Shown here in pieces: positions 3,586 through 43,818 of a DNA stretch of 49,383 bases. Each line of letters begins with the position of its first letter. The stretch's first letter is position 1. Under the pieces are notes generated by a model. That model did no database searches. It was not told where the DNA came from and worked only from the letters and a program-made list of their open reading frames with translations. The DNA comes from Candidatus Moraniibacteriota bacterium (GTDB lineage Bacteria > Patescibacteriota > Minisyncoccia > Moranbacterales > UBA1568), in assembly GCA_037142915.1 (NCBI GenBank), contig JBAWZR010000001.1, positions 1 through 49,383 of the forward strand. The letters run 5' to 3'. The position numbers and the translations under genes are program-made.

Positions 3586-3706
3586 CATTTTAAGCGGTCT
3601 TGATGGAATGAAGTTTAGGTGCTACCATAGGAGACAATGTGAGTGATTGCCCAGGGTGGGAGCGTTAGCCTTTTTTGATCCAATGTTTCTCTCTATTTTC
3701 TCGCCT

Positions 3707-6526
<2,820 letters not shown>

Positions 6527-6550
6527 AAAAGAGATATATAAAAAAAAATC

Positions 6551-6585
6551 GGGATTCTTATAATGATAATAAGAATCCCTTTTTT
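6551..6585. terminator. bidirectional intrinsic terminator between convergent genes
   Basis: 11-bp stem GGGATTCTTAT/ATAAGAATCCC flanked by an A-run upstream and TTTTTT downstream. It lies between the uvrA end and the end of the minus-strand gene. Confidence 0.6.
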
Positions 6586-6602
6586 GATTGCCTGAAGATT
6601 TT

Positions 6603-7136
6603 TTAAAACTGCAGGATTAGCAGAAGGACTGTCGCAAGCCAATTTATTTGTGTTGCAACGAATGGTAGAAATGCCATCAGTTTTCCTGGTTGCTTGTTTT
6701 TGTACCCGATAGAGAAGCAAAGAAGAGTCAATGACCCTGACACTATAAAATTTGCCAGAAAGAGATATCCAAAAGTCTTCAATAGAAATATCCCGAAAGA
6801 TCCAAAAAACAGAATTACTCCGACGGAGAAAATTATTTTTAGGATAATCAAATAAATACCGTTAAAATCTTGATGATAGTAGTAGTTTAATACCAACCCA
6901 AATACTGTGGAGAGTATAAGTAGCGTTCCTGCCACCATACCTACTACGGTTGTATCACGCAGAAGTTCAGGAGAAAATTCGATATGGGAAATTCTGGCCA
7001 TTGTTTGGCCGACGATGAGTGCTCCAAAAATACTGGCTGCCACTAGAAAGGCATCCTTTATTGTAGGCAGCGTCCTTTTTAAAATATCCATTGTTATTAA
7101 GAGAATATTCTTTACTGCTGGTATTGCTTTTTTCAT
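6603..7136 (-). CDS. hypothetical multi-pass membrane protein
   Basis: 177-aa ORF with about 5 hydrophobic segments. No family recognised. Confidence 0.55.
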   Translation of the reverse strand: MKKAIPAVKNILLITMDILKRTLPTIKDAFLVAASIFGALIVGQTMARISHIEFSPELLRDTTVVGMVAGTLLILSTVFGLVLNYYYHQDFNGIYLIILKIIFSVGVILFFGSFGIFLLKTFGYLFLANFIVSGSLTLLCFSIGYKNKQPGKLMAFLPFVATQINWLATVLLLILQF

Positions 7137-7340
7137 GATATTGCTCCATCAGCCGCCACTGAAAAGTTGTAAAAGAACCTGGATATCTCGTTTGGCGGAA
7201 CGAAATTGGTTTATTCAGCAGAAGACTGCGCTTCAAGACTGACTTTGTAATATAGCCTATTTGGAGGCAATAGTCAAGACTGCCAAAAAGTCTCGGAGAA
7301 GGCTATACTAAAGGGAGTTGATAATTAATGCGGGATACTT

Positions 7341-8165
7341 ATGAATACGGGATTGGTTGTTTTTGAATCAAAAAAAATCCGTCGGGTGTGGCATGACGGT
7401 CGATGGTTTTTTTCGGTGGTGGACATTGTTGAAGTTTTAACGGAGAGTCGTGCTCCTCGCCAATACTGGGGTGTATTGAAGGGAAGGGAAACTCAGTTGT
7501 TAACAATTTGTTTACAACTGAAATTGGAGAGTTCTGATGGAAAGAAATATAGTACTGACTGCGCCAATACAGAGGGTATGTTTCGTATTATCCAATCAAT
7601 TCCCAGCCCGAAGGCTGAGCCGTTCAAGCGGTGGTTGGCGAAAGTTGGGTATGAGCGCGTACAAGAAATAGAAAATCCTGAATTGGCGCAAGAGCGGATG
7701 AAGCAACTCTATGAACAAAAGGGGTATCCAAAAGATTGGATCGACAAGCGATTGCGCGGGATTGCTATTCGTCAGAATTTGACCGATGAATGGAAAGATC
7801 GCGGTATTGAGAGTGAGCGCGACTACGCTATCTTAACAGCAGAAATTAGTCGGGCGACCTTTGGGATGACGCCGAGCGAGTACCGGAAGCACAAGAATAT
7901 TCCCGAAAAGTCACCGGCGAATTTACGAGATAATATGACTGATCTCGAATTAATTTTTACGATGCTTGGTGAACGGGTGACGACGGAAATTTCTCAAATT
8001 GAAAAACCGGAAGCGTTTGATGAAAATAAGCGGGTCGCTAGACGCGGCGGAAGCGTGGCTGGCAATGCGAGACGGGAGACTGAGAAAGAAATTGGGCGAA
8101 GCGTGATCTCGAAACAGAATGCACTGGCGATAACGAAACAGCGGAAATTGTTGGAGGAGAAATAA
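7341..8165 (+). CDS. Bro-N domain / DNA-damage-inducible protein D (DinD)-like protein
   Basis: The N-terminus FESKKIRRVWHDGRWFFSVVDIVEVLTES...RQYW and KAEPFKRWLAKVGYERVQEIENPE match the Bro-N/DinD-like pattern. Confidence 0.65.
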   Translation: MNTGLVVFESKKIRRVWHDGRWFFSVVDIVEVLTESRAPRQYWGVLKGRETQLLTICLQLKLESSDGKKYSTDCANTEGMFRIIQSIPSPKAEPFKRWLAKVGYERVQEIENPELAQERMKQLYEQKGYPKDWIDKRLRGIAIRQNLTDEWKDRGIESERDYAILTAEISRATFGMTPSEYRKHKNIPEKSPANLRDNMTDLELIFTMLGERVTTEISQIEKPEAFDENKRVARRGGSVAGNARRETEKEIGRSVISKQNALAITKQRKLLEEK

Positions 8166-17729: not shown

Positions 17730-19556
17730 ATGTCCGAAGAATCATCCAAGAAAAATATCACCTTCCCAGTAAGAGTGATTTTTCACTATTATTGGCAGTC
17801 AATGCGACCCTACAAGTGGCAGGTGGTTTTTACTTTTGTCGCGTATGGTTTTGCATCACTCATTGCGAATGTTTTCCAGCCACTCATATTTCGGAAAATT
17901 ATTGATGTTATTTCTTCAAATGGTATAGAAAAAATGTTGTTGGCGAACGGTTTATGGTGGTGGTTTTGGTGTTTTGTGATCGTAACAGTTATTTATCAAT
18001 GCTTCTTTCGAGTCGGGGATTTTTTTATTGTTCGTACGGAAAGTATTGTGATGAAGGATTTGGCAGATCGAGCTTTTTCTGACTTACATAGACACAGTTA
18101 TCAGTTTTTTTCCAATTCTTTTTCCGGGAGTCTGGTGGCAAAATCAAAACGATTCGTGGCGGGTTTCGAGGATTTGTACGATAGCATCATTTTCAATTTT
18201 TGGATGACTTTCGTACAAGTCGCGGGAATATTTGTCACACTTTTTGTTTTGACCCCACTCATTTCGGCATTCTTTTTCTTTTTTGTTATTGTGTATGTTT
18301 GGTTTTCTTGGTGGGTGATGATGAAGAAATCGCCTTATGATGAACAATCTTCCGAAGAAGACTCTAAATTAACTGCCAAACTTTCAGATGTACTCTCGAA
18401 TGCTTTGACGGTGAAAACATTTTCAGCCGAACAAAACGAGATAGATTCTTTTGCAGAAACGAGTAACTCATGGGAGCGAGCTCGTCGTAAAGCGTGGAAT
18501 TTTCAGAATATTGCCATCACGGGGCAGACGGTATTGCTTGGTGTGCTCGAGCTCGTGGCTGTGGGGATTTCTCTCTACTTATGGCTGAAGGGAAACATCA
18601 CTTCCGGGACAGTAGTATTGGTCCAGCTCTATGTTGGGAATCTCTTCGGTGCATTGTTCCAGTTGAATCGAGTGTTTGGACGGGTTATTCGTCGGCTTGC
18701 TGATGCGTCCGAGATGATCGAGATATTTGAGACGCCGACTGAAGTGGCGGATATTGTCGAACCGAAGAAATTGGAGAAGGTGAAGGGCGAGTTGGTGCTC
18801 AATAATCTAACATTTAAATATGCTGATGGTGCGCCGGTGTTTGAAAAGCTTTCGGTGCGATTTCGAGCGGGGGAGAAGGTCGGGATTGTCGGGTCGAGTG
18901 GCGCGGGCAAATCGACCCTGACGAAACTCTTGTTGCGATTCCTCGATCCTAATGCGGGCTCGGTGACCATTGATGGTGTGGATATCCGCGAGTTGGCGCA
19001 GGCCGACGTGCGGCGGATGATCGCCTATGTGCCTCAGGAGCCAGCACTCTTTCATCGTACTCTGCGGGAGAATATCGCCTATGCGCACCCGGAGGCATCG
19101 ATGGACGAAGTAATCCGTGTGGCGAAATTGGCTCACGCTCATGAATTCATTGAGAAGCTGTCCAATGGTTATGAGACGCTCGTGGGCGAACGCGGAGTGA
19201 AGCTCTCGGGTGGAGAGCGCCAACGGGTAGCCATCGCGCGCGCGATACTCAAAGATGCTCCAATCCTCATCCTCGACGAGGCCACGAGTGCGCTTGATAC
19301 GATCAGTGAGCAATATATCCAAGAGGCACTCGATGTCTTGATGCAAGGGCGGACGACCCTCGTGATCGCGCATCGCTTGAGCACAGTACGCAAGATGGAT
19401 CGGATCATCGTGTTTGAGGAGGGTGTTATTGTCGAGGAGGGAACACACGACGAACTTGTAGCGAGGGGAGGCGTCTATGCCGGTTTTTGGGTACGCCAGA
19501 CCAGCGGTTTTATTGACGAATTCGATGAAAGTGCTACACTGGAAATACTTGCGTAA
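17730..19556 (+). CDS. ABC transporter, fused permease/ATP-binding protein (MsbA/MdlB-type exporter)
   Basis: 608 aa with an N-terminal 6-TM-like domain. Walker A GSSGAGKSTL, signature LSGGERQRVAIARA, Walker B ILILDEATSALD. Confidence 0.9.
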   Translation: MSEESSKKNITFPVRVIFHYYWQSMRPYKWQVVFTFVAYGFASLIANVFQPLIFRKIIDVISSNGIEKMLLANGLWWWFWCFVIVTVIYQCFFRVGDFFIVRTESIVMKDLADRAFSDLHRHSYQFFSNSFSGSLVAKSKRFVAGFEDLYDSIIFNFWMTFVQVAGIFVTLFVLTPLISAFFFFFVIVYVWFSWWVMMKKSPYDEQSSEEDSKLTAKLSDVLSNALTVKTFSAEQNEIDSFAETSNSWERARRKAWNFQNIAITGQTVLLGVLELVAVGISLYLWLKGNITSGTVVLVQLYVGNLFGALFQLNRVFGRVIRRLADASEMIEIFETPTEVADIVEPKKLEKVKGELVLNNLTFKYADGAPVFEKLSVRFRAGEKVGIVGSSGAGKSTLTKLLLRFLDPNAGSVTIDGVDIRELAQADVRRMIAYVPQEPALFHRTLRENIAYAHPEASMDEVIRVAKLAHAHEFIEKLSNGYETLVGERGVKLSGGERQRVAIARAILKDAPILILDEATSALDTISEQYIQEALDVLMQGRTTLVIAHRLSTVRKMDRIIVFEEGVIVEEGTHDELVARGGVYAGFWVRQTSGFIDEFDESATLEILA

Positions 19557-19686: not shown

Positions 19687-19963
19687 GTAGTCTACAAACG
19701 GGACTCGAACAGAGAGTCTGATGTCGCCGGTAATCCTCGCCAATGTTATAATACGCTTGTTGAGAGATACAATTCATTTTTTTGTTTTCCTGATAGGTTG
19801 ATCTTAGAATTTTAAGGAGTATATAGTGTATCAATTATACATTTTAGGATACATAGAGGTGTGGCATGTTTTTAGGTTCTTCTTTTGTTATCTCGCTGTT
19901 AATAATGGTAGCGAGATAGTCAGGAGGCGATTCCTCCCAGTTCTTTATATTAGGAGAAGGACG

Positions 19964-20080
19964 ATGCAAGTTGAAACAATAGCTGATGCAAAGACAAGTG
20001 CTCAGAAAGATCAGGTTATTGCGCGTATTTTAGCGCAACTTAAAGCTGGTAATGGTGCTTGTCAAGGCTGTGAAAGTTAG
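19964..20080 (+). CDS. 38-aa Cys-containing peptide (candidate precursor peptide)
   Basis: AGGAGAAGG lies 4 nt upstream of ATG 19964. Sequence is MQVETIADAKTSAQKDQVIARILAQLKAGNGACQGCES: a helical-looking N-part and a small C-terminal C-x-G-C tail. A strong hairpin follows. The longer ORF 19826..20080 is not supported. Confidence 0.5.
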   Translation: MQVETIADAKTSAQKDQVIARILAQLKAGNGACQGCES

Positions 20081-20115
20081 CCACTACATCAAGCGAATGT
20101 AGTTGGTTCCATTGT

Positions 20116-20157
20116 CCTAGCGTTTCGTAATATACGAAGCGCTAGGATTTATTTTTT
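20116..20157 (+). terminator. hairpin plus T-tract after the small peptide gene (terminator/attenuator)
   Basis: CCTAGCGTTTCG-taatata-CGAAGCGCTAGG (12 bp, one G-U), then ATTTATTTTTT. Confidence 0.55.
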
Positions 20158-20188
20158 ACATTAGGCCAAATAAAGACAGGAGGCCGCA

Positions 20189-20698
20189 ATGAATCAAGAA
20201 TTTACAATGGCGAGCTTGCAGCAAGTGCTCGACTACGATAATGCGCGAGTGCTTAACAAGTTTCGCACCATGTATTCCGTTTCGCAGGATGAAGTGCAAG
20301 AGATCTTTACTGAAATGAAAAAATGGCTTTGGCTAAGTGCTCAACGAAAAGCTTCCGTTAGAAATGGGCAACTGAAAGATTTCGGTACGCTGGTTATTCA
20401 TACCGGAATGGTTATCATCGACGAGTTGTGGCACACTTTCATTCTTCATACGCAGGATTATACGGATTTTTGCAATCGGTATTTTGGATTTTATATCCAT
20501 CATTCACCAGGGAGTCCAGATTTTCTACCACAGTCGGACGAGAAGAACCGAGAGCAGCTCAATTATATATGGGATCTCTTAGGTGGAGAAACTCTTGTTA
20601 GATGGTATGAAGAATATCCTGTAAGGTACTCCCCAGAAATATTGCTTGGGTTGATACGTCAGCCGGTATTTGGCAGACCTTGTGAGGTGGTGGTATGA
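20189..20698 (+). CDS. glycine-rich-domain-containing-protein-like (GRDP/DUF1399-like) protein
   Basis: The IIDELWHTFILHTQDYTDFCNRYFGFYIHHSP motif (D-x2-WH-x-[HF]-IL-x-T-x2-Y) is shared with the paralog at 39520..39987. RBS AGGAGG upstream. 4-nt overlap with the next gene. Confidence 0.55.
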   Translation: MNQEFTMASLQQVLDYDNARVLNKFRTMYSVSQDEVQEIFTEMKKWLWLSAQRKASVRNGQLKDFGTLVIHTGMVIIDELWHTFILHTQDYTDFCNRYFGFYIHHSPGSPDFLPQSDEKNREQLNYIWDLLGGETLVRWYEEYPVRYSPEILLGLIRQPVFGRPCEVVV

Positions 20699-21321
20699 GT
20701 GGGATTGAACCTTGTCCCGATATGGTCCGGTCTCGTCTTGATGAGTATGGTTTCGCGGTAGTAAAGACAGAGAATCTTGATGGATTTTATGCAATATGCA
20801 ATTTGCTGGGAAAAATCAGTCAAACGATAGAAGTTCGTTTGAACCCTGAAAAGGATCAGTATCCATACTGTGCTGATGCGGTGCCGTTTCATACGGATCA
20901 TCCGCACGTGCCGATAGTTGCATGGTATTGTAATCAACAAGATGCTGATAATGGCGCTAACCTGCTTGTAGATTCAAGAGAAATAGTTTGCAAGATGTCG
21001 ACTGTCGAGCAAGAGGCGCTACAGAAGATTCAATTGCGAGTGTTTCATTGTGATGAATATCGACCACTTCTCAGAAGTAATCCGTATCATATATATTGGT
21101 TACCAGTTGTGATTCAAGAAGCGCTGACATATGCCGATACCTTACAAGCTGCCGCTATAACATCGTTTCATGAGGAGCTTGTAAAACAAATGGAGAATGT
21201 CGTGTCACTGAAGTTGAATGTCGGCGAAGCACTGTTCGTGAATAACAGAATAATGCTTCATGGACGTCACGCTATCGCGCAGAATAGCATTCGCCATTTG
21301 ACACGAGCTTATGTGGTGTAG
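20695..21321 (+). CDS. TauD/TfdA-like Fe(II)/2-oxoglutarate dioxygenase
   Basis: PFHTDHP (H-x-D facial-triad motif) and the distal NNRIMLHGRHA resemble the TauD-family pattern. Confidence 0.6.
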   Translation: MSGIEPCPDMVRSRLDEYGFAVVKTENLDGFYAICNLLGKISQTIEVRLNPEKDQYPYCADAVPFHTDHPHVPIVAWYCNQQDADNGANLLVDSREIVCKMSTVEQEALQKIQLRVFHCDEYRPLLRSNPYHIYWLPVVIQEALTYADTLQAAAITSFHEELVKQMENVVSLKLNVGEALFVNNRIMLHGRHAIAQNSIRHLTRAYVV

Positions 21322-21334
21322 TTTTGATTCTTAA

Positions 21335-21371
21335 GACTCCAAACGATAAACAATCGTTTGGAGTCCTTTTT
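21335..21371 (+). terminator. strong intrinsic terminator
   Basis: 13-bp stem GACTCCAAACGAT/ATCGTTTGGAGTC, loop aaaca, then CTTTTT. Confidence 0.8.
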
Positions 21372-21443
21372 ATAATAAGCATGTATTTCAAAATCAGTGT
21401 ATACTTATCTTAGTAAGTAGTATATGCAGTATTTTTATCGAAT

Positions 21444-21971
21444 ATGGAAAAACGCCTTTACAATATCGTTACCGAAACAATGGGAGCGGACTTCTTTCAG
21501 AACGTTACGGTTTTGGATGTCGGTTGTGCTCGTTACGCCGAGAGCATCGCCTTGCGGGATATGGGAGCGGATGTCACAGCACTTGATGTGCTCAAGCGAG
21601 AGGAACCGCCGGAGCGCATCCGTTTTGTCTTGAGTAACTTCTTAGAATGGCAGCCGGATCAGGCATTCGATGTGCTCTACCTTTCTAATTCAGCTCTGTT
21701 CATGCCGAATGCAGATGTCTTCGAAAAAATAGCAGCACTCCGGCCGAAAACAGTCGTCGTCCGCACGATGTATGACTACCCTGAACCGAATTGGGATGCC
21801 AGTCAGTTGAAGCAGCTCTATTTTACCAAACCATCCGATTGGGTCGATTATTTCGAGCCATTGGGGTTTTTGACCATGCATACCGACATCTACGAAGAAG
21901 TGTCTCCTGATATGCTTGGTAGCGTACGTACCTTTCGGGTTACGGAATATATTGGAAGGAGATCTGATTGA
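21444..21971 (+). CDS. class I SAM-dependent methyltransferase
   Basis: VLDVGCARYAESIALRDMGADVTALDV matches motif I plus the acidic residue after beta-2. 175 aa. Confidence 0.7.
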   Translation: MEKRLYNIVTETMGADFFQNVTVLDVGCARYAESIALRDMGADVTALDVLKREEPPERIRFVLSNFLEWQPDQAFDVLYLSNSALFMPNADVFEKIAALRPKTVVVRTMYDYPEPNWDASQLKQLYFTKPSDWVDYFEPLGFLTMHTDIYEEVSPDMLGSVRTFRVTEYIGRRSD

Positions 21972-22104: not shown

Positions 22105-22138
22105 GAGAGAAAACACACATAATCAGCCTCATAAGGGG

Positions 22139-22304
22139 CTGTTTTTGTTTTACTTCTGCAAAAATACGGTATAGAATAGGGGTAAGAGATTTTGAATTCC
22201 TCCCCACCTTTGCGAAGGCGGGGATTGAGGGGCGGTTGAGTTGCATGCGGCTCTGATACAACACCATCCCTCCAGTGGGACAACAAAGGGCTATTGAAAG
22301 CCAT
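22139..22304 (+). repeat. module A copy 1 (166-nt core): T-tract, promoter-like hexamers, conserved leader
   Basis: Near-identical (2 substitutions as read) to 30725-30890 and 41110-41275. It is preceded by its own 7-bp hairpin (22124-22141, CAGCCTC-ATAA-GGGGCTG). TTTACT (22149-22154), 17-nt spacer, TAGAAT (22172-22177). It ends 75 nt before ATG 22380. Confidence 0.85.
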
Positions 22305-22379
22305 CCGTTTCGGCACACGAGGCGACCGCCGGTTTCGGAAAGAGGAGGTTGTAGAAATATTGAAAAGAAAATAATCGTT

Positions 22380-30411: not shown

Positions 30412-30591
30412 CATTTAGTGAAAAAACAGTTTCTCTGAAAAACAAAAACCCCTTGCGGGGAAGCTGCCCAAAAGACTTGTATCGTCTCGACTCTAGCCAA
30501 CCGATGGATGGGAACATCGAGAACAGTCTCTCAAGGACTTATGCCTATCGTTAGTATATGAGATATCGGGAAATTTAGCAAGAAAAATCAC

Positions 30592-39519: not shown

Positions 39520-39987
39520 ATGGAAAATTTTGAAGCTTCTAAGTTTGCGGATTTTGACCTAGGCATGATCAGGTTAAAGCTGACTCATCCTGAAGAAGGT
39601 GAAGGTTGGTCGAAGGAATTCGCTGATGCGGTTGAGAAAGACTATCGACGTTTTTTGTACCTCAACGCAAAATATAAAGGTGCTGTGCTTGTGCCATCAA
39701 AATTAGTTGATAAGTACTGGCATTCGCATATTTTGGATACGCGAAAATATGCCCATGATTCAAATATGCTTTTCGGCGAATTCTTCCATCATTTTCCATA
39801 TTTCGGCATACGCGGAGCTGAAGATGAGGTGATGCATAGAAATGCTTTCGCCAATACTCAGCAGTTGTGGCTGAAAGAATTTGGAAAAATGCAAGATTCT
39901 CACACTAGCATACCTTTTTCCAGGGAAGCGTCAACCTGTCAAGGTGTTTGCTGTTGTGACGTTGTATCCTACAAAGAAGCAGCTTGA
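39520..39987 (+). CDS. GRDP/DUF1399-like protein with Cys-rich C-terminal tail
   Basis: LVDKYWHSHILDTRKYAHDSNMLFGEFFHHFPYFG is paralogous to 20189..20698. The C-terminal tail is EASTCQGVCCCDVVSYKEAA. ATG 39520 follows AAGAGGA. Confidence 0.6.
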   Translation: MENFEASKFADFDLGMIRLKLTHPEEGEGWSKEFADAVEKDYRRFLYLNAKYKGAVLVPSKLVDKYWHSHILDTRKYAHDSNMLFGEFFHHFPYFGIRGAEDEVMHRNAFANTQQLWLKEFGKMQDSHTSIPFSREASTCQGVCCCDVVSYKEAA

Positions 39988-40067: not shown

Positions 40068-40934
40068 ATGAAATTTGAAAATGAATTAGAGAATAATAAA
40101 GATGTTTCTTGCGTCGAACTTGTTGACTTTGGTGGTGTAATTAATGGTGCAGAGAAAAAAGAGCAACGGAAAATTAAAGAGTTACTTGTTTTGGCAGAGA
40201 CATATAGGTTTTTATACGCTGTAAATTCAAAAAAGGTAGTTGGCTATATTTCTATACCAAAACATGTAACTCATGCCCCGTGTCTTATTCATCTGCGTGG
40301 CGGCGGCGGTGATTTTAGCATGTTACAAGAATCTTCTATTCTGGAAAAGCTTGTTAAGTTTTCCATGGAGGGATATGTCGTAATAACAACGCAATACCCA
40401 GGTGTTGAAGGTGGAGACGGATCCGATGCTTACGGCGGTCAGGAGGATATTTTAAGTATCATAAAGCTCAAAGATATTCTTGAGTCGATTTCAGTGGCAG
40501 ACACCAGAAAAATAGGTGTTAAGGGTCATTCGCGAGGAGGACTCATGGCATATATGCTTCTAAGAAAAGTTGATTGGGTTACCTGTGCTGTTATCGGGAG
40601 CGCGCCAGTGGATCAAATACAGCTAGTAAGGGAGCGCAGTGAATGGAGAGAATATCAAATTTCAATGTGGGGTTATTCAAAGAACGATGCTATTGATAGA
40701 TCCCCTATATACTGGTCACGTGATCTGCCTGAAAATAGTCCATTATTGCTGGTTCATGGATCTTCCGATGAAAGAGTGGACGTTTCGCATTCATTGCGAA
40801 TGAATGCGAGTTTAGATGAGTTATCAATCCCTCATGAATTTATTTTATTCGAAGGCGATGATCATGGTATAACCAGGCATAAGCAAGAATATTTTGATCG
40901 AACACTGAATTGGTTTAATCGATTTTTAAGATAA
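40068..40934 (+). CDS. alpha/beta hydrolase, S9 prolyl-oligopeptidase / dienelactone-hydrolase-like
   Basis: Nucleophile elbow GVKGHSRGG, LLVHGSSDERVD, and GDDHG suggest a Ser-Asp-His triad arrangement. Confidence 0.7.
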   Translation: MKFENELENNKDVSCVELVDFGGVINGAEKKEQRKIKELLVLAETYRFLYAVNSKKVVGYISIPKHVTHAPCLIHLRGGGGDFSMLQESSILEKLVKFSMEGYVVITTQYPGVEGGDGSDAYGGQEDILSIIKLKDILESISVADTRKIGVKGHSRGGLMAYMLLRKVDWVTCAVIGSAPVDQIQLVRERSEWREYQISMWGYSKNDAIDRSPIYWSRDLPENSPLLLVHGSSDERVDVSHSLRMNASLDELSIPHEFILFEGDDHGITRHKQEYFDRTLNWFNRFLR

Positions 40935-40976: not shown

Positions 40977-41275
40977 AAAAAGAGGCTTTTATAAAGGAAA
41001 AAATGAAGATTAACCTTTAGGGTATCCTCTGGTAAACAAATAGTGGCTAAATAAATTCCAACCTTGTCCAAAATTTCCGGCCATTCGGAACGAGCAGTCG
41101 CGCAAGCGTCTGTTTTTGTTTTACTTCTGCAAAAATACGGTATAGAATAGGGGTAAGAGATTTTGAATTCCTCCCCACCTTTGCGAAGGCGGGGATTGAG
41201 GGGCGGTTGAGTTGCATGCGGCTCTGATACAACACCATCCCTCCAGTGGGACAAGAAAGGGCTCTTGAAAGCCAT
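40977..41275 (+). repeat. module A copy 3 (299-nt long form)
   Basis: Aligns to 30592-30890 and, for the core 41110-41275, to 22139-22304. TTTACT 41120-41125 and TAGAAT 41143-41148. It ends 92 nt before ATG 41368. Confidence 0.85.
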
Positions 41276-41367
41276 CCGCATCGGGGAGCGCAAGGCGAGA
41301 AGGTATCGCAAGGAGGATATTCTGAAGATGATTGAGGATAAATAAAAACAAAATATATTATATTACT

Positions 41368-43818
41368 ATGGCGATCAAGAAATCTCAACTGTACAGCTCT
41401 ATATGGAAAGCGTGTGATGAATTGCGTGGCGGAATGGATGCATCGCAGTATAAGGACTATGTGTTGGTACTTTTATTTGTCCGGTATGTATCCGACAAAT
41501 ACAGTAATCTTGAGGATTCGTTGGTGGAAATTCCAAAGGGTGGTGGCTTTGTAGATCTTATTGCACTCAAAGGGACAACGGATATTGGAAGCGGTATCAA
41601 TATAGTGTTGTCGAAATTGGCAAGCGCCAACGGACTTGTCGGTGTGATAGATCAAGTGGATTTTGATGATGAAGACAAACTTGGAAAGGGTAAGGAAATG
41701 CAAGATCGTCTTTCTGCATTGATTGGTATATTTGAAAATGCGGATTTGGATTTTAGTAAGAACCGCGCTGAAGGGGATGATCTTTTGGGCGATGCCTATG
41801 AGTATTTGATGAAACATTTTGCGGTGCAATCAGGAAAAAGCAAGGGTCAATTCTATACTCCAGCAGAAGTATCGCGCATTATGGCAAAGGTGATCGATGC
41901 TCGGCATTCATCCGGACAAACACAAACCGTGTACGATCCAGCATGCGGGAGTGGCTCGCTTCTCTTGAAAGTTGCCGATGAAGCGCACAAAGGTATCACT
42001 ATTTACGGGCAAGAATTGGACAATGCCACTGCCGGATTGGCCGTCCTGAATATGTGGCTTCACGGGAGAGCTATTTCCACCATCAAGAAAGGGCAGAGTA
42101 CGCTTTCCGATCCTCTTTTTACTGAGAATAGGGAGCTCAAAACATTTGATTATGTAGTTGCCAATCCGCCTTTCTCTTCAAAAAATTGGCGCAACGGTTT
42201 TGATCCTTCCAATGATACATACGATCGTTTTGACGGCTATGGTATCCCGCCCGAGAAAAATGGCGATTACGCTTTTTTGCTTCACATTCTCAAGTCATTA
42301 AAAAGCACGGGAACGGGTGCAGTCATTTTGCCTCACGGTGTTTTGTTTCGTGGCAATGTGGAGGCGGATATTCGCACCAACATCATCCATCGCGGATATA
42401 TCAAAGGTATCATTGGTTTGCCTGCCAATCTTTTCTATGGCACGGGTATTCCGGCTTGTATTATCGTGTTGGACAAAGCGGGCGCAGGGGAGCGCAAGGG
42501 GATTTTTATGATCGATGCTTCCAAAGGATTCGTCAAAGACGGCAACAAAAACCGTCTGCGTGAGCAAGACATCCGCAAGATCACAGATGCGTGGAGCAAT
42601 GCTTTAGAAATTCCAAAATACTCCCGTTTCGTTTCCAATGAGGAAATTCACAAAAACGAATACAATCTCAATCTTCCTCGGTATATTGATACGCAAGCGC
42701 CCGAAGATATTCAAGATATCGAGGCTCATCTCAAAGGTGGTATTCCTGATGGCGATATCGAAATCCTCGCTCCGTATTGGCAGGTCTGTCCGACGCTCAA
42801 GAAAGCGCTTTTCAAAAAGAACGGTCGAGCGGGGTATAGTGAGATGCTCATCGCGCACGACGAGGTCAAGAAAACCATCCTCACACATCCCGAATTTCTG
42901 ACATTCAAAAAACAAACCCTTGCAACCTTTACCGAGTGGAAAGAAATATCGACGCCATTTTTCAAAGCACTCTCGCAAAAGGATCACCCTAAGGCTATCA
43001 TCTCAACCATTACCGAAACACTCTTGCAACACTGCGCAGATTTTCGTTTGATTGACAAATATGACCTCTATCAACACCTGATGAATTATTGGGAAGAGAC
43101 GATGCAAGACGATGCGTATGTCATCACGGTGGACGGCTGGCAAGCAGGCAAGGAATTGATGCGTATGCAAAAAGAAACCAAAAACAAAGGCAAGAACGTC
43201 AAAAAAACGGTGCCGGGACTCTATGGTCTTGAAGGGCGATTGGTGCCGATCGAACTTGCCATCGAAACCTATTTTTCCAAAGAGCAATCTGCACTCGATG
43301 CGCTCATTATCGCATTGGAGCAAACAGGTGCCGATATGGAAGCATTCAAAGATGAACACGGAGGCGAGGATGGTCTGCTTGCCGAGGTGATCGAGAATGA
43401 CAAGATTAAAAAAATTGATGTGCAAAAACGCATCAAGATGATCAAAAAGAGCAAGGCTGATGCCGAGGAGTTGGCAGTGCTTGAGTTGTATCTTGCGCTC
43501 TTTGAAAAAGAAACCGCAACCAAACAATTCATCAAAGATGCCGAGAAGGATTTGGAGAACAAACTCTTGGCGAAGTACCCGACACTTTCAGAAGAAGAAA
43601 TCAAGACACTGACTATCGATAAAAAATGGATGGGTGAATTGACCATGCGGGTAACGGGCGAGGTGGATCGCTTGTCGCAAACCCTTGCCGGAAGGGTCAA
43701 GGAATTGGCGGAGCGTTATGAGACACCCTTGCCGATCATTAAGCGGGAAGTGGAAACATTGACCGAGAAAGTCGAGCAACATCTGACAAAGATGGGTTTT
43801 GATGTGACAAAACTATGA
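41368..43818 (+). CDS. hsdM: Type I R-M DNA methyltransferase subunit (long form with coiled-coil C-terminal extension)
   Basis: SQLYSSIWKACDELRGGMDASQYKDYVLVLLFVRYVSDKY, VYDPACGSGSLLL, and VANPPFS. 816 aa. Confidence 0.95.
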   Translation: MAIKKSQLYSSIWKACDELRGGMDASQYKDYVLVLLFVRYVSDKYSNLEDSLVEIPKGGGFVDLIALKGTTDIGSGINIVLSKLASANGLVGVIDQVDFDDEDKLGKGKEMQDRLSALIGIFENADLDFSKNRAEGDDLLGDAYEYLMKHFAVQSGKSKGQFYTPAEVSRIMAKVIDARHSSGQTQTVYDPACGSGSLLLKVADEAHKGITIYGQELDNATAGLAVLNMWLHGRAISTIKKGQSTLSDPLFTENRELKTFDYVVANPPFSSKNWRNGFDPSNDTYDRFDGYGIPPEKNGDYAFLLHILKSLKSTGTGAVILPHGVLFRGNVEADIRTNIIHRGYIKGIIGLPANLFYGTGIPACIIVLDKAGAGERKGIFMIDASKGFVKDGNKNRLREQDIRKITDAWSNALEIPKYSRFVSNEEIHKNEYNLNLPRYIDTQAPEDIQDIEAHLKGGIPDGDIEILAPYWQVCPTLKKALFKKNGRAGYSEMLIAHDEVKKTILTHPEFLTFKKQTLATFTEWKEISTPFFKALSQKDHPKAIISTITETLLQHCADFRLIDKYDLYQHLMNYWEETMQDDAYVITVDGWQAGKELMRMQKETKNKGKNVKKTVPGLYGLEGRLVPIELAIETYFSKEQSALDALIIALEQTGADMEAFKDEHGGEDGLLAEVIENDKIKKIDVQKRIKMIKKSKADAEELAVLELYLALFEKETATKQFIKDAEKDLENKLLAKYPTLSEEEIKTLTIDKKWMGELTMRVTGEVDRLSQTLAGRVKELAERYETPLPIIKREVETLTEKVEQHLTKMGFDVTKL

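Follow-up and report, generated by a model that had tools for sequence, protein, structure and literature searches.

Introduction

The question raised by this locus is whether a very short cysteine-containing peptide and the enzyme-like genes that follow it constitute a peptide-modification pathway. The locus lies in a 49,383-nucleotide stretch of contig JBAWZR010000001.1 (assembly GCA_037142915.1, Candidatus Moraniibacteriota bacterium, positions 1 to 49,383 of the forward strand), referred to below as the window. A gene for a peptide of 38 amino acids (aa) is followed there by genes for a 169-aa UCP032817-like protein of family PF27765, a TauD-family dioxygenase and a small methyltransferase-like protein, and a second PF27765 gene is found further downstream. 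The initial annotation had described this layout as resembling that of peptides that are ribosomally synthesized and undergo post-translational modification (RiPPs), and all the features it listed were found in place (Table 1). Comparative genomics supports the RiPP-like reading, since the peptide is conserved, has a leader/core layout and is paired with or fused to PF27765 proteins in other bacteria. We consider it fairly probable that the locus encodes a RiPP-like pathway of a class that we did not find described, with the UCP032817-like protein as the maturase of the cysteine peptide.

Conservation of the peptide gene

The peptide gene of the window is preceded by a ribosome-binding site (RBS), AGGAG at 19952-19956, with the ATG 7 nucleotides downstream. 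The product has a leader helix (..QVIARILAQLKAG) and a core, (G)ACQGCES, at the C-terminus. Scans against NCBIfam and Pfam gave no meaningful match for it or for the 169-aa protein, and NCBIfam had no model for any of ten representative peptides.

Conservation was assessed in seven independent loci of the candidate phyla radiation (CPR), namely the window, L001, L002, L004, L011, L173 and L174, which come from Moraniibacteria, Doudnabacteria, Saccharibacteria and CPR contigs without assignment. The window contig is itself filed at NCBI under two labels, Candidatus Moraniibacteriota (protein P0001) and Actinomycetota bacterium (P0173); it was probably binned into two separate metagenome assemblies, and its gene relatives are CPR.

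A small open reading frame (ORF) ending in the core ACQGC(E/T)(S/G) is present in 7/7 of these loci, as is a UCP032817-like gene with an overlapping TauD gene; loss of the ORF from homologous loci was one of the three outcomes that the initial annotation had named as evidence against itself. The peptide ends in ..QVVARILAQLQASGGACQGCES in L001, ..REVIGRILTKLHSANCSSACQGCTSVSSK in L173 and ..TRKERIKRIVKKLSASDCSACQGCTS in L004, and it reads MKEKVIARIIARLREASAGACQGCTGCG in L002, MKEKIIAQIVAKLQASSGGACQGCTGCSK in L174 and MTRKERIRRIAEKLCAAKCAACQGCTS in L011. In L004 and L011 the ORF is located between the TauD and methyltransferase genes and not upstream, so it is the gene itself that is conserved and not a fragment of an untranslated region. 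Over the last 26 codons, L001 departs from the window by 8 synonymous and 7 mostly conservative non-synonymous changes, with exclusively synonymous changes in the GACQGCES stretch. Among the CPR members it is the leader that varies, and the core ACQGC is constant. A metagenome scan for further CPR-type loci yielded just one short contig, L093. Judged by its sequence, the peptide ORF is a genuine gene, conserved far beyond chance.

Pairing with PF27765 genes across bacteria

With a profile built from 24 members and representatives taken at 50% identity (E <= 1e-3), the PF27765 family comprises 9,357 clusters, and a pattern scan located it in at least 584 species genomes. Carriers were found in Bacteroidota, Pseudoalteromonas, Shewanella, cyanobacteria, Bdellovibrionota, Myxococcota, Planctomycetota, Legionellaceae, Streptomyces and CPR. 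Most of the 80 genome loci collected first have, directly 5' or 3' of the family gene, a small ORF of the same orientation. Examples of these partner peptides are MVNSKKALIAAILAAKSAVGGTHCSKCGHCTATL and MNKAKIINSLVNKNLESNNGARFCGCVICCVDRHSPNNK, together with MKATLIERLIQKNVVNVTYCCVLDDWVTSQKR in Streptomyces ipomoeae and MTKDEMICRVIRYVAQKPSTKQSCCGR in Legionella fallonii. They share an N-terminal helix with the motif K-(K/E)-x-L-I-x-x-(L/I)-(L/I)-x-K, and their C-terminus is Cys-rich and hypervariable. Across phyla, the leader is conserved while the cores vary from 4 to more than 60 residues and in the number and spacing of cysteines.

A crude rule, requiring an adjacent small ORF with at least two cysteines in its last 22 residues, was satisfied, out of 170 loci, in 92 on the gene strand and in 61 on the reverse strand. 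It was rejected as non-specific, and therefore a hidden Markov model (HMM) of the leader was used instead. Searched against 26,009 six-frame segments from 90 loci at a strict threshold (E < 0.05), the leader HMM gave 36 matches, all 36 on the gene strand and less than 1 kb from a family gene, with none elsewhere; the window peptide was picked up at E = 3e-4. In a strand-control test at >=8 bits, in which the flanks of the family gene were scored in 170 loci and their own reverse strand served as the control, the leader was detected at 48/170 loci on the gene strand and at 0/170 in the control. For loci outside the training set the figures were 20/141 and 0/141. In an independent test set of 80 metagenome loci, the top five matches were all directly upstream of a family gene.

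These results bear on whether the peptide could be a chance ORF, or the regulatory leader peptide (attenuator) of a small-molecule operon. Its short length would fit such an origin, as would the hairpins on both sides, one of them terminator-like and ahead of the enzyme genes, and small Cys ORFs are common by chance, as the 61 control-strand loci show. However, the ACQGC core and leader helix are kept in all seven CPR loci even where the gene has moved 3' of TauD, the core changes only synonymously between the window and L001, the leader HMM separates the two strands completely, and in other genomes leader and core are fused in frame to the enzyme. This explanation is very improbable, and is effectively refuted by conservation.

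Some loci hold several precursor copies, two in L014 and four to five in L013. In the latter (Ferruginibacter, 5559..8138), the leader-bearing precursors stand in a row after the family gene and have long cores rich in Cys, Gly and Pro. Minimal loci also exist, consisting of the peptide and the domain protein only (L008, Legionella fallonii) or of a fused protein only (L091 and L092). As no other enzyme is present in them, these loci argue that the domain itself is the modifier, and the UCP032817-like protein is the sole partner found in every locus.

Fused forms and the second locus of the window

In many members of the family the peptide is not a separate product. Fused members carry, after the domain, a linker, a leader-like motif (DAVIAEILA, ADLIEAIVA or DDMVKAIIN) and a core with the pattern YCGxxCGxYC(S/T)C, and leader-plus-core fusions are also found in L046, L080 and L082. 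Of the 80 metagenome loci, about 35 encode fused tails rich in Cys. Tandem repeats make up the tails in Burkholderiales and others, examples being AAYCYAAK (x8-11), AAFCSLAAK (x9), SAYCGATAAKQAD (x4-5) and KTAWCSPAA (x5); two tandem-repeat tails are devoid of Cys, with six copies each of RTAWSGAATTSPAA (TAWSGA repeats) and IAYSGAPA (AYSGAP repeats).

Many PF27765 tails (P0177-P0288) end, beyond their variable Cys-rich or repeat part, in a conserved R-P-x-(F/L), for instance ..SRPIFTG, ..TRPSLS and ..RPALALAA, and the 169-aa proteins of the CPR clade end in ..VFGRPCE (window 20672..20695). One possibility is that the R-P-x-(F/L) ending serves as a follower or recognition sequence; another is that an S9 (prolyl-oligopeptidase-family) hydrolase cleaves there.

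The second PF27765 protein of the window is one of the fused members. It terminates in ...STCQGVCCCDVVSYKEAA, with STCQGVCCC within the tail, and its CPR homologues P0174-P0176 retain the tail as EASTC(Q/E/K)G(V/I)CCCD. The AlphaFold2 model consists of a confident all-alpha domain followed by a disordered tail, in which the predicted local distance difference test (pLDDT) score is under 50 (from residue 143); such disorder agrees better with a substrate than with a structural module. The gene is followed by that of an S9-family hydrolase, a pairing also found in the Paceibacterota relative L090, and the window hydrolase is homologous to an S9 protein of L002 (E = 2e-22). A 224-aa S-adenosylmethionine (SAM) methyltransferase on the opposite strand is tied to the system only by its adjacency. 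Since Cys-rich tails typify the subfamily of this paralog, the second locus is, as far as sequences tell, the cis ('fused') form of the same system. The likeness that the initial annotation had seen between the CQGC end of the peptide and the CQGVCCC tail is borne out, split and fused forms both being common.

The UCP032817-like protein and its domain

The gene of the 169-aa protein has AGGAGG at 20177-20182, and its stop codon overlaps the TauD start (ATGA, 20695-20698), so that the two genes are translationally coupled. Both window proteins are assigned to PF27765 through P0001 and P0173, proteins of identical sequence whose Pfam annotation was precomputed; the two window proteins are 26% identical to each other (E = 3e-7). 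The 169-aa protein had been called GRDP-like/DUF1399, but it gave no match to that family (PF07173) at E <= 1. The second paralog reached 19.4 bits (E = 0.0018; gathering cut-off 22.7), the relative P0192 21.8 bits, and some relatives are annotated with both families. Judging from these scores, PF27765 is a remote sibling family of PF07173 and not a member, so the former label was roughly right for the kinship and wrong for the family.

Residues D78, W81, H82, L86, T88, Y91 and H105 are invariant across the family, and H104 and C95 are conserved at >=90%; in the subfamily of the paralog, the motif reads W-H-x-H-I-L-D-T..Y..D...HHFPYFG.RG..D. The D/H/HH/Y residues resemble a metal or catalytic site. 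AlphaFold2 predicted a confident all-alpha structure for the 169-aa protein (pLDDT 89.9, predicted template modelling score 0.86). A sequence-profile search of the PDB with the domain gave no match, and Foldseek searches of the PDB with the models of both window proteins gave best E values of 2.5 and 4.2, with template modelling (TM) scores below 0.3. With no relative in the PDB, there is no mechanism to borrow from a known fold. A non-exhaustive literature search on DUF1399, GRDP-like, UCP032817 and PF27765 returned only papers on plant GRDP phenotypes, and the system was not found in Pfam descriptions, NCBIfam, PADLOC or Rfam. A role in defence was also considered and rejected, PADLOC having no matches for either UCP032817-like protein, the TauD protein or the S9 hydrolase.

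Alternatively, the UCP032817-like protein could be non-catalytic. It might bind the leader as a scaffold or chaperone, in the manner of a RiPP recognition element, or it might act in immunity or sequestration, with the chemistry performed by variable neighbours (TauD/JmjC, methyltransferases, P450, S9). The accessory enzymes do vary by clade, the domain, at about 130-170 aa, is small as well as all-helical, and it is fused to TauD and to glycosyltransferase domains, as recognition domains often are. Nevertheless, the minimal loci and the stand-alone fused proteins have no other enzyme nearby, and the invariant positions are taken by polar residues of metal-ligand type (D, H, HH, Y and a near-invariant C) instead of a hydrophobic binding groove. 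We regard a non-catalytic role as unlikely.

In the maturase reading, the 38-aa product would be the precursor, with the N-terminal amphipathic helix (..QVIARILAQLK..) as leader and the C-terminal ACQGCES as core. The 169-aa protein would recognise the leader and modify the core, most likely at its cysteines, using an active site for which the conserved Asp78, His82 and His104-His105, with Tyr91, most likely provide a metal site. The TauD dioxygenase (hydroxylation) and the small methyltransferase (methylation) would be clade-specific tailoring enzymes. The second locus would be the cis version, in which the Cys core is carried on the C-terminus of the enzyme and released by the downstream S9 hydrolase.

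TauD dioxygenase and methyltransferase-like protein

The TauD protein matches PF02668 with 47 bits (cut-off 27), and its facial triad is complete (H66-T-D68 and H189), with the basic residue that follows in ..RHLTRAYV. Just five word-indexed homologues of it were found, and all those that could be placed are directly 3' of a UCP032817-like gene. In P0150, the UCP032817-like domain is fused to a TauD domain of the window subfamily, which aligns over its full length with the window TauD protein (29% identity, E = 7e-23); this fusion gives Rosetta-stone support to the coupled UCP032817-like/TauD pair of the window. Further fusions join the domain to a glycosyltransferase. The cross-genome association of the families that the initial annotation had proposed checking is thus found in the TauD genes that follow UCP032817-like genes, in the P0150 fusion and in the pairing with peptides across phyla.

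The best named matches of the TauD protein are TmpA and gamma-butyrobetaine dioxygenase. Together with the CypM-like methyltransferase they suggested a trimethylammonium-type chemistry, which is not claimed because the TauD matches are confined to the C-terminal ~50 residues.

A small methyltransferase-like gene is found 3' in every CPR locus with enough contig, that of L173 stopping inside the next gene. The best Pfam score of the window protein is 19.2 bits (cut-off 27), there are weak TehB matches, and motif I reads VLDVGCA and not GxGxG. A profile of four orthologues matches CypM (7wzg) over residues 18-99 (E = 2.3e-6). Of the two accessory enzymes named initially, the TauD-like dioxygenase was thus borne out by family match and triad, while the methyltransferase assignment is weak, with scores below the cut-off.

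Neighbouring genes

For the survey of neighbours, ORFs lying no more than 3.5 kb from the family gene were clustered across the 86 loci of the first set. ABC exporters were found in 19 loci, S9-type hydrolases in 14 (directly downstream in 10), HlyD-type proteins in 10 and a 308-aa protein without assigned function in another count of 10. TauD proteins, small methyltransferases and TonB-dependent receptors were each found in 8, three of the TauD loci being non-CPR, and JmjC oxygenases in 4; six further small methyltransferases are located alongside a P450 in Pseudoalteromonas. Variable tailoring, export and proteolysis around a constant pair of putative enzyme and substrate, as seen here, is the usual make-up of peptide natural-product clusters. 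DUF692/DUF2063 (MNIO) genes were absent from the window genes scanned and from the recurrent neighbour clusters. In the window, an ABC exporter is encoded upstream of the peptide, beyond a tRNA-Asp gene; since no counterpart was found beside the cluster in the other six CPR loci, it was left out of the CPR cluster.

The survey is also relevant to another explanation, in which peptide and protein are a metal- or redox-handling pair. The Cys peptide or tail would then serve in metal binding or thiol redox chemistry, in the way of a metallothionein or chaperone or by providing cluster ligands, and would work with a UCP032817-like metalloprotein in trans or in cis, and the TehB/TPMT-like methyltransferases and the dioxygenase would act on a small molecule or metalloid. 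Such a function would agree with tails of regularly spaced Cys/His, for example CTSDCHQCHAGCHDSP and CSANCERCCSGGH, with the SCO1 and PCuAC-like copper chaperone genes that adjoin L009, with the TPMT- and TehB-like methyltransferases and ArsS-like radical SAM gene of L006, with the TonB receptors and with the weak TehB matches of the window methyltransferase. It is harder to reconcile with cores that are hypervariable in length and in cysteine number and spacing behind a conserved leader, with tandem-repeat tails of which two are Cys-free, and with several precursor copies in some loci. In addition, some peptides have double-glycine-type leaders, exporters, HlyD proteins and S9 peptidases recur as neighbours, and the fused tail is predicted to be disordered. 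A metal- or redox-handling pair is, on balance, rather unlikely.

Several observations weigh against the maturase reading itself. That the peptide is modified is an inference, and no relative of known function was detected for the domain, so that both 'enzyme' and 'metal site' are drawn from conservation. Many fused tails have a regular Cys/His spacing, e.g. DCTSDCHQCHAGCHDSP, and could be bona fide metal-binding modules instead of substrates. The first cluster has no conserved exporter or protease adjoining it in the CPR loci, the window methyltransferase is weakly recognisable, and the methyltransferases of L004 and L011 belong to a different, barely related subfamily. Finally, the rule based on at least two cysteines in a small ORF has a high background (92 against 61 loci), and therefore the share of PF27765 loci with a peptide, taken from the leader HMM and the fused tails, is known as a lower bound.

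Other features of the window

The features of both loci are collected in Table 1.

Table 1. Coordinates of the features discussed in the two PF27765 loci of the window and of the genes flanking them.
Feature	Position	Strand	Details and evidence
ABC exporter (transmembrane domain + ATPase), beyond tRNA-Asp; membership doubtful	17730..19556	+	ABC_membrane + ABC_tran
Promoter-like site upstream of the peptide gene, TTGATC-18-TATAGT	19798..19827	+	Consensus scan; weak evidence
Two hairpins in the 5' untranslated region, directly before the peptide RBS	19890..19937	+	ATCTCGCT..AGCGAGAT; GGAGG..CCTCC
Precursor-like peptide, 38 aa	ATG 19964 to TAG 20080	+	MQVETIADAKTSAQKDQVIARILAQLKAGNGACQGCES; RBS, conservation, leader HMM
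Hairpin + T-tract between peptide and enzyme genes	20114..20158	+	16-bp stem 20114..20148, then TTATTTTTT
UCP032817-like (PF27765) protein, 169 aa, candidate maturase	20189..20698	+	PF27765; invariant residues; AlphaFold2 model
TauD-family Fe(II)/2-oxoglutarate dioxygenase, short, 208 aa	20695..21321	+	PF02668; triad; ATGA overlap
Intrinsic-terminator-like hairpin 3' of the TauD gene	21335..21375	+	13-bp stem + T-run
Small class-I SAM methyltransferase-like protein, 175 aa	21444..21971	+	Pfam below cut-off; orthologue profile vs CypM
SAM methyltransferase, 224 aa	38628..39302	-	Methyltransf_25 68.6 bits, Methyltransf_11 66.3 bits
UCP032817-like protein with fused Cys-rich tail	39520..39987 (alternatively from 39487)	+	PF27765; tail ..EASTCQGVCCCDVVSYKEAA
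S9-family serine hydrolase/peptidase, 288 aa, candidate processing protease	40068..40934	+	Peptidase_S9 74 bits

The hairpins before the peptide gene are retained in L001 (~3692..3740) with compensatory changes (ATCTCAGC..GCTGAGAT; AGAGG..CCTCT), and they could be a regulatory or stabilising leader. The hairpin with T-tract between peptide and enzyme genes, a possible partial terminator, is also retained in L001, where TTTCG/CGAAG is replaced by the compensatory TTCCG/CGGAG; no counterpart of it was found in L002. An equivalent of the hairpin 3' of the TauD gene is present in L002. A search of Rfam gave no match for the untranslated regions, nor any at E <= 1 for the hairpins before the peptide gene, and the idea that these regions contain a known structured RNA was dropped.

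A block of about 170 nucleotides occurs twice in the window (~22138..22312 and ~41088..41262), the copies differing at 2 bases, with a promoter-like TTTACT-17-TAGAAT. Each copy is located just downstream of one UCP032817-like locus and just upstream of a large defence-type gene, the first preceding a 1225-aa helicase-like gene (PADLOC match PDC-S37/Hhe/MkoA) and the second an HsdM-like methylase gene (41332..43818). Against Rfam, the block gave no family at the gathering score and a weak HgcC match on the minus strand (E = 0.48). The Rfam DUF3800-V RNA motif was detected at 30456..30553 on the minus strand, with 49.9 bits against a gathering score of 37.4.

In other genomes, the repeat-tailed members of two Oxalobacteraceae, Noviherbaspirillum galbum (L091, 2493..4661) and Pseudoduganella dura (L092, 3054..4865), adjoin a CHASE-domain histidine kinase, which could reflect shared synteny or hint at a role in signalling. 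In L006 (185..3675), a distant family member has a downstream Cys peptide, MEKSTLIQKLIEKNVKVRSTKGCTGNCVGSKCKCR, and its flanking genes encode methyltransferases of the TPMT and TehB type and a radical SAM protein resembling ArsS (DUF3641). These neighbours hint at thiol or metalloid methylation in some clusters.

Comparison with known systems

The closest parallel in architecture is that of the borosins (OphMA-type, fused and 'split'), in which the core is likewise located on the C-terminus of the enzyme or on a separate precursor (PMC10549244; bioRxiv 10.1101/2021.12.24.474128). Borosin enzymes are SAM-dependent alpha-N-methyltransferases of known fold (same references). The domain described here is unrelated to them, being all-alpha with a His/Asp/Tyr signature, and the cores are defined by Cys. 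The window itself holds both arrangements, 20189..20698 with 19964..20080 as the split form and 39520..39987 as the fused form.

Fungal dikaritins (UstYa/DUF3328) have tandem core repeats beside a small His-rich oxidative domain. The plant burpitides, made by copper-dependent BURP-domain cyclases, similarly have core repeats with or near such a domain (PMC12186524; PMC11253845). The tails AAYCYAAK, AAFCSLAAK and KTAWCSPAA are the counterpart here. However, burpitides and dikaritins are eukaryotic, have other folds and motifs (CH motifs, HxxHC) and contain Tyr/Trp cross-links, and no relation in sequence or fold was detected. In MNIO (DUF692) pathways (methanobactins, bufferins, TglH, chryseobasins), an O2-dependent metalloenzyme modifies Cys of small precursors. 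Small Cys precursors, and TonB receptors or copper chaperone genes near some loci, are common to both. The candidate enzyme here is of about 150 aa and all-alpha, unlike the TIM barrel of MNIO enzymes, and the loci examined contain no DUF692/DUF2063.

Tailoring enzymes of RiPPs include CypM, the N-terminal methyltransferase of cypemycin, and CinX, a 2-oxoglutarate hydroxylase. The window methyltransferase profile matches CypM best, although over the SAM-binding half only, and the TauD-fold oxygenase and the S9 hydrolase stand beside the two loci; the window TauD protein is unusually short (208 aa), and no substrate can be inferred from it. S9 proteases are known to act in RiPP maturation (bioRxiv 10.1101/2025.10.18.683210). 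Plant and fungal GRDPs (PF07173, DUF1399) share the motif block W-H-x-H-x-L-x-T..Y..D...HH with the PF27765 proteins and also have a low-complexity, Gly- or Cys-rich tail after the domain. What is known of plant GRDPs comes only from phenotypes in stress and development, and no biochemistry has been assigned to them (PMC4299439; PMC8585784).

A wider proposal is put forward tentatively, as one to which we give somewhat less than even credence. A large RiPP class, of which we found no description, might have the UCP032817/GRDP-like domain as its class-defining maturase, with a new metalloenzyme fold. The domain would modify Cys, or in some members Ser beside an aromatic residue, in trans on leader peptides or in cis on a tail or repeats, from CPR to Proteobacteria, Bacteroidota, cyanobacteria and Streptomyces. 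By extension, eukaryotic GRDPs could have a substrate tail of this sort in their 'glycine-rich domain'.

Significance

If the maturase reading is correct, it would provide the first functional context for a very large family (9,357 clusters, at least 584 species) to which no biochemistry has been assigned, and a new route to Cys-modified peptides based on a fold that the PDB lacks. Substrates for finding the chemistry are at hand in the split, fused and tandem-repeat architectures, and culturable carriers (Pseudoalteromonas, Flavobacterium, Chryseobacterium, Legionella, Streptomyces and Oxalobacteraceae) make the hypothesis directly testable. For the CPR bacteria, it would mean that organisms with tiny genomes hold two copies of such a pathway.

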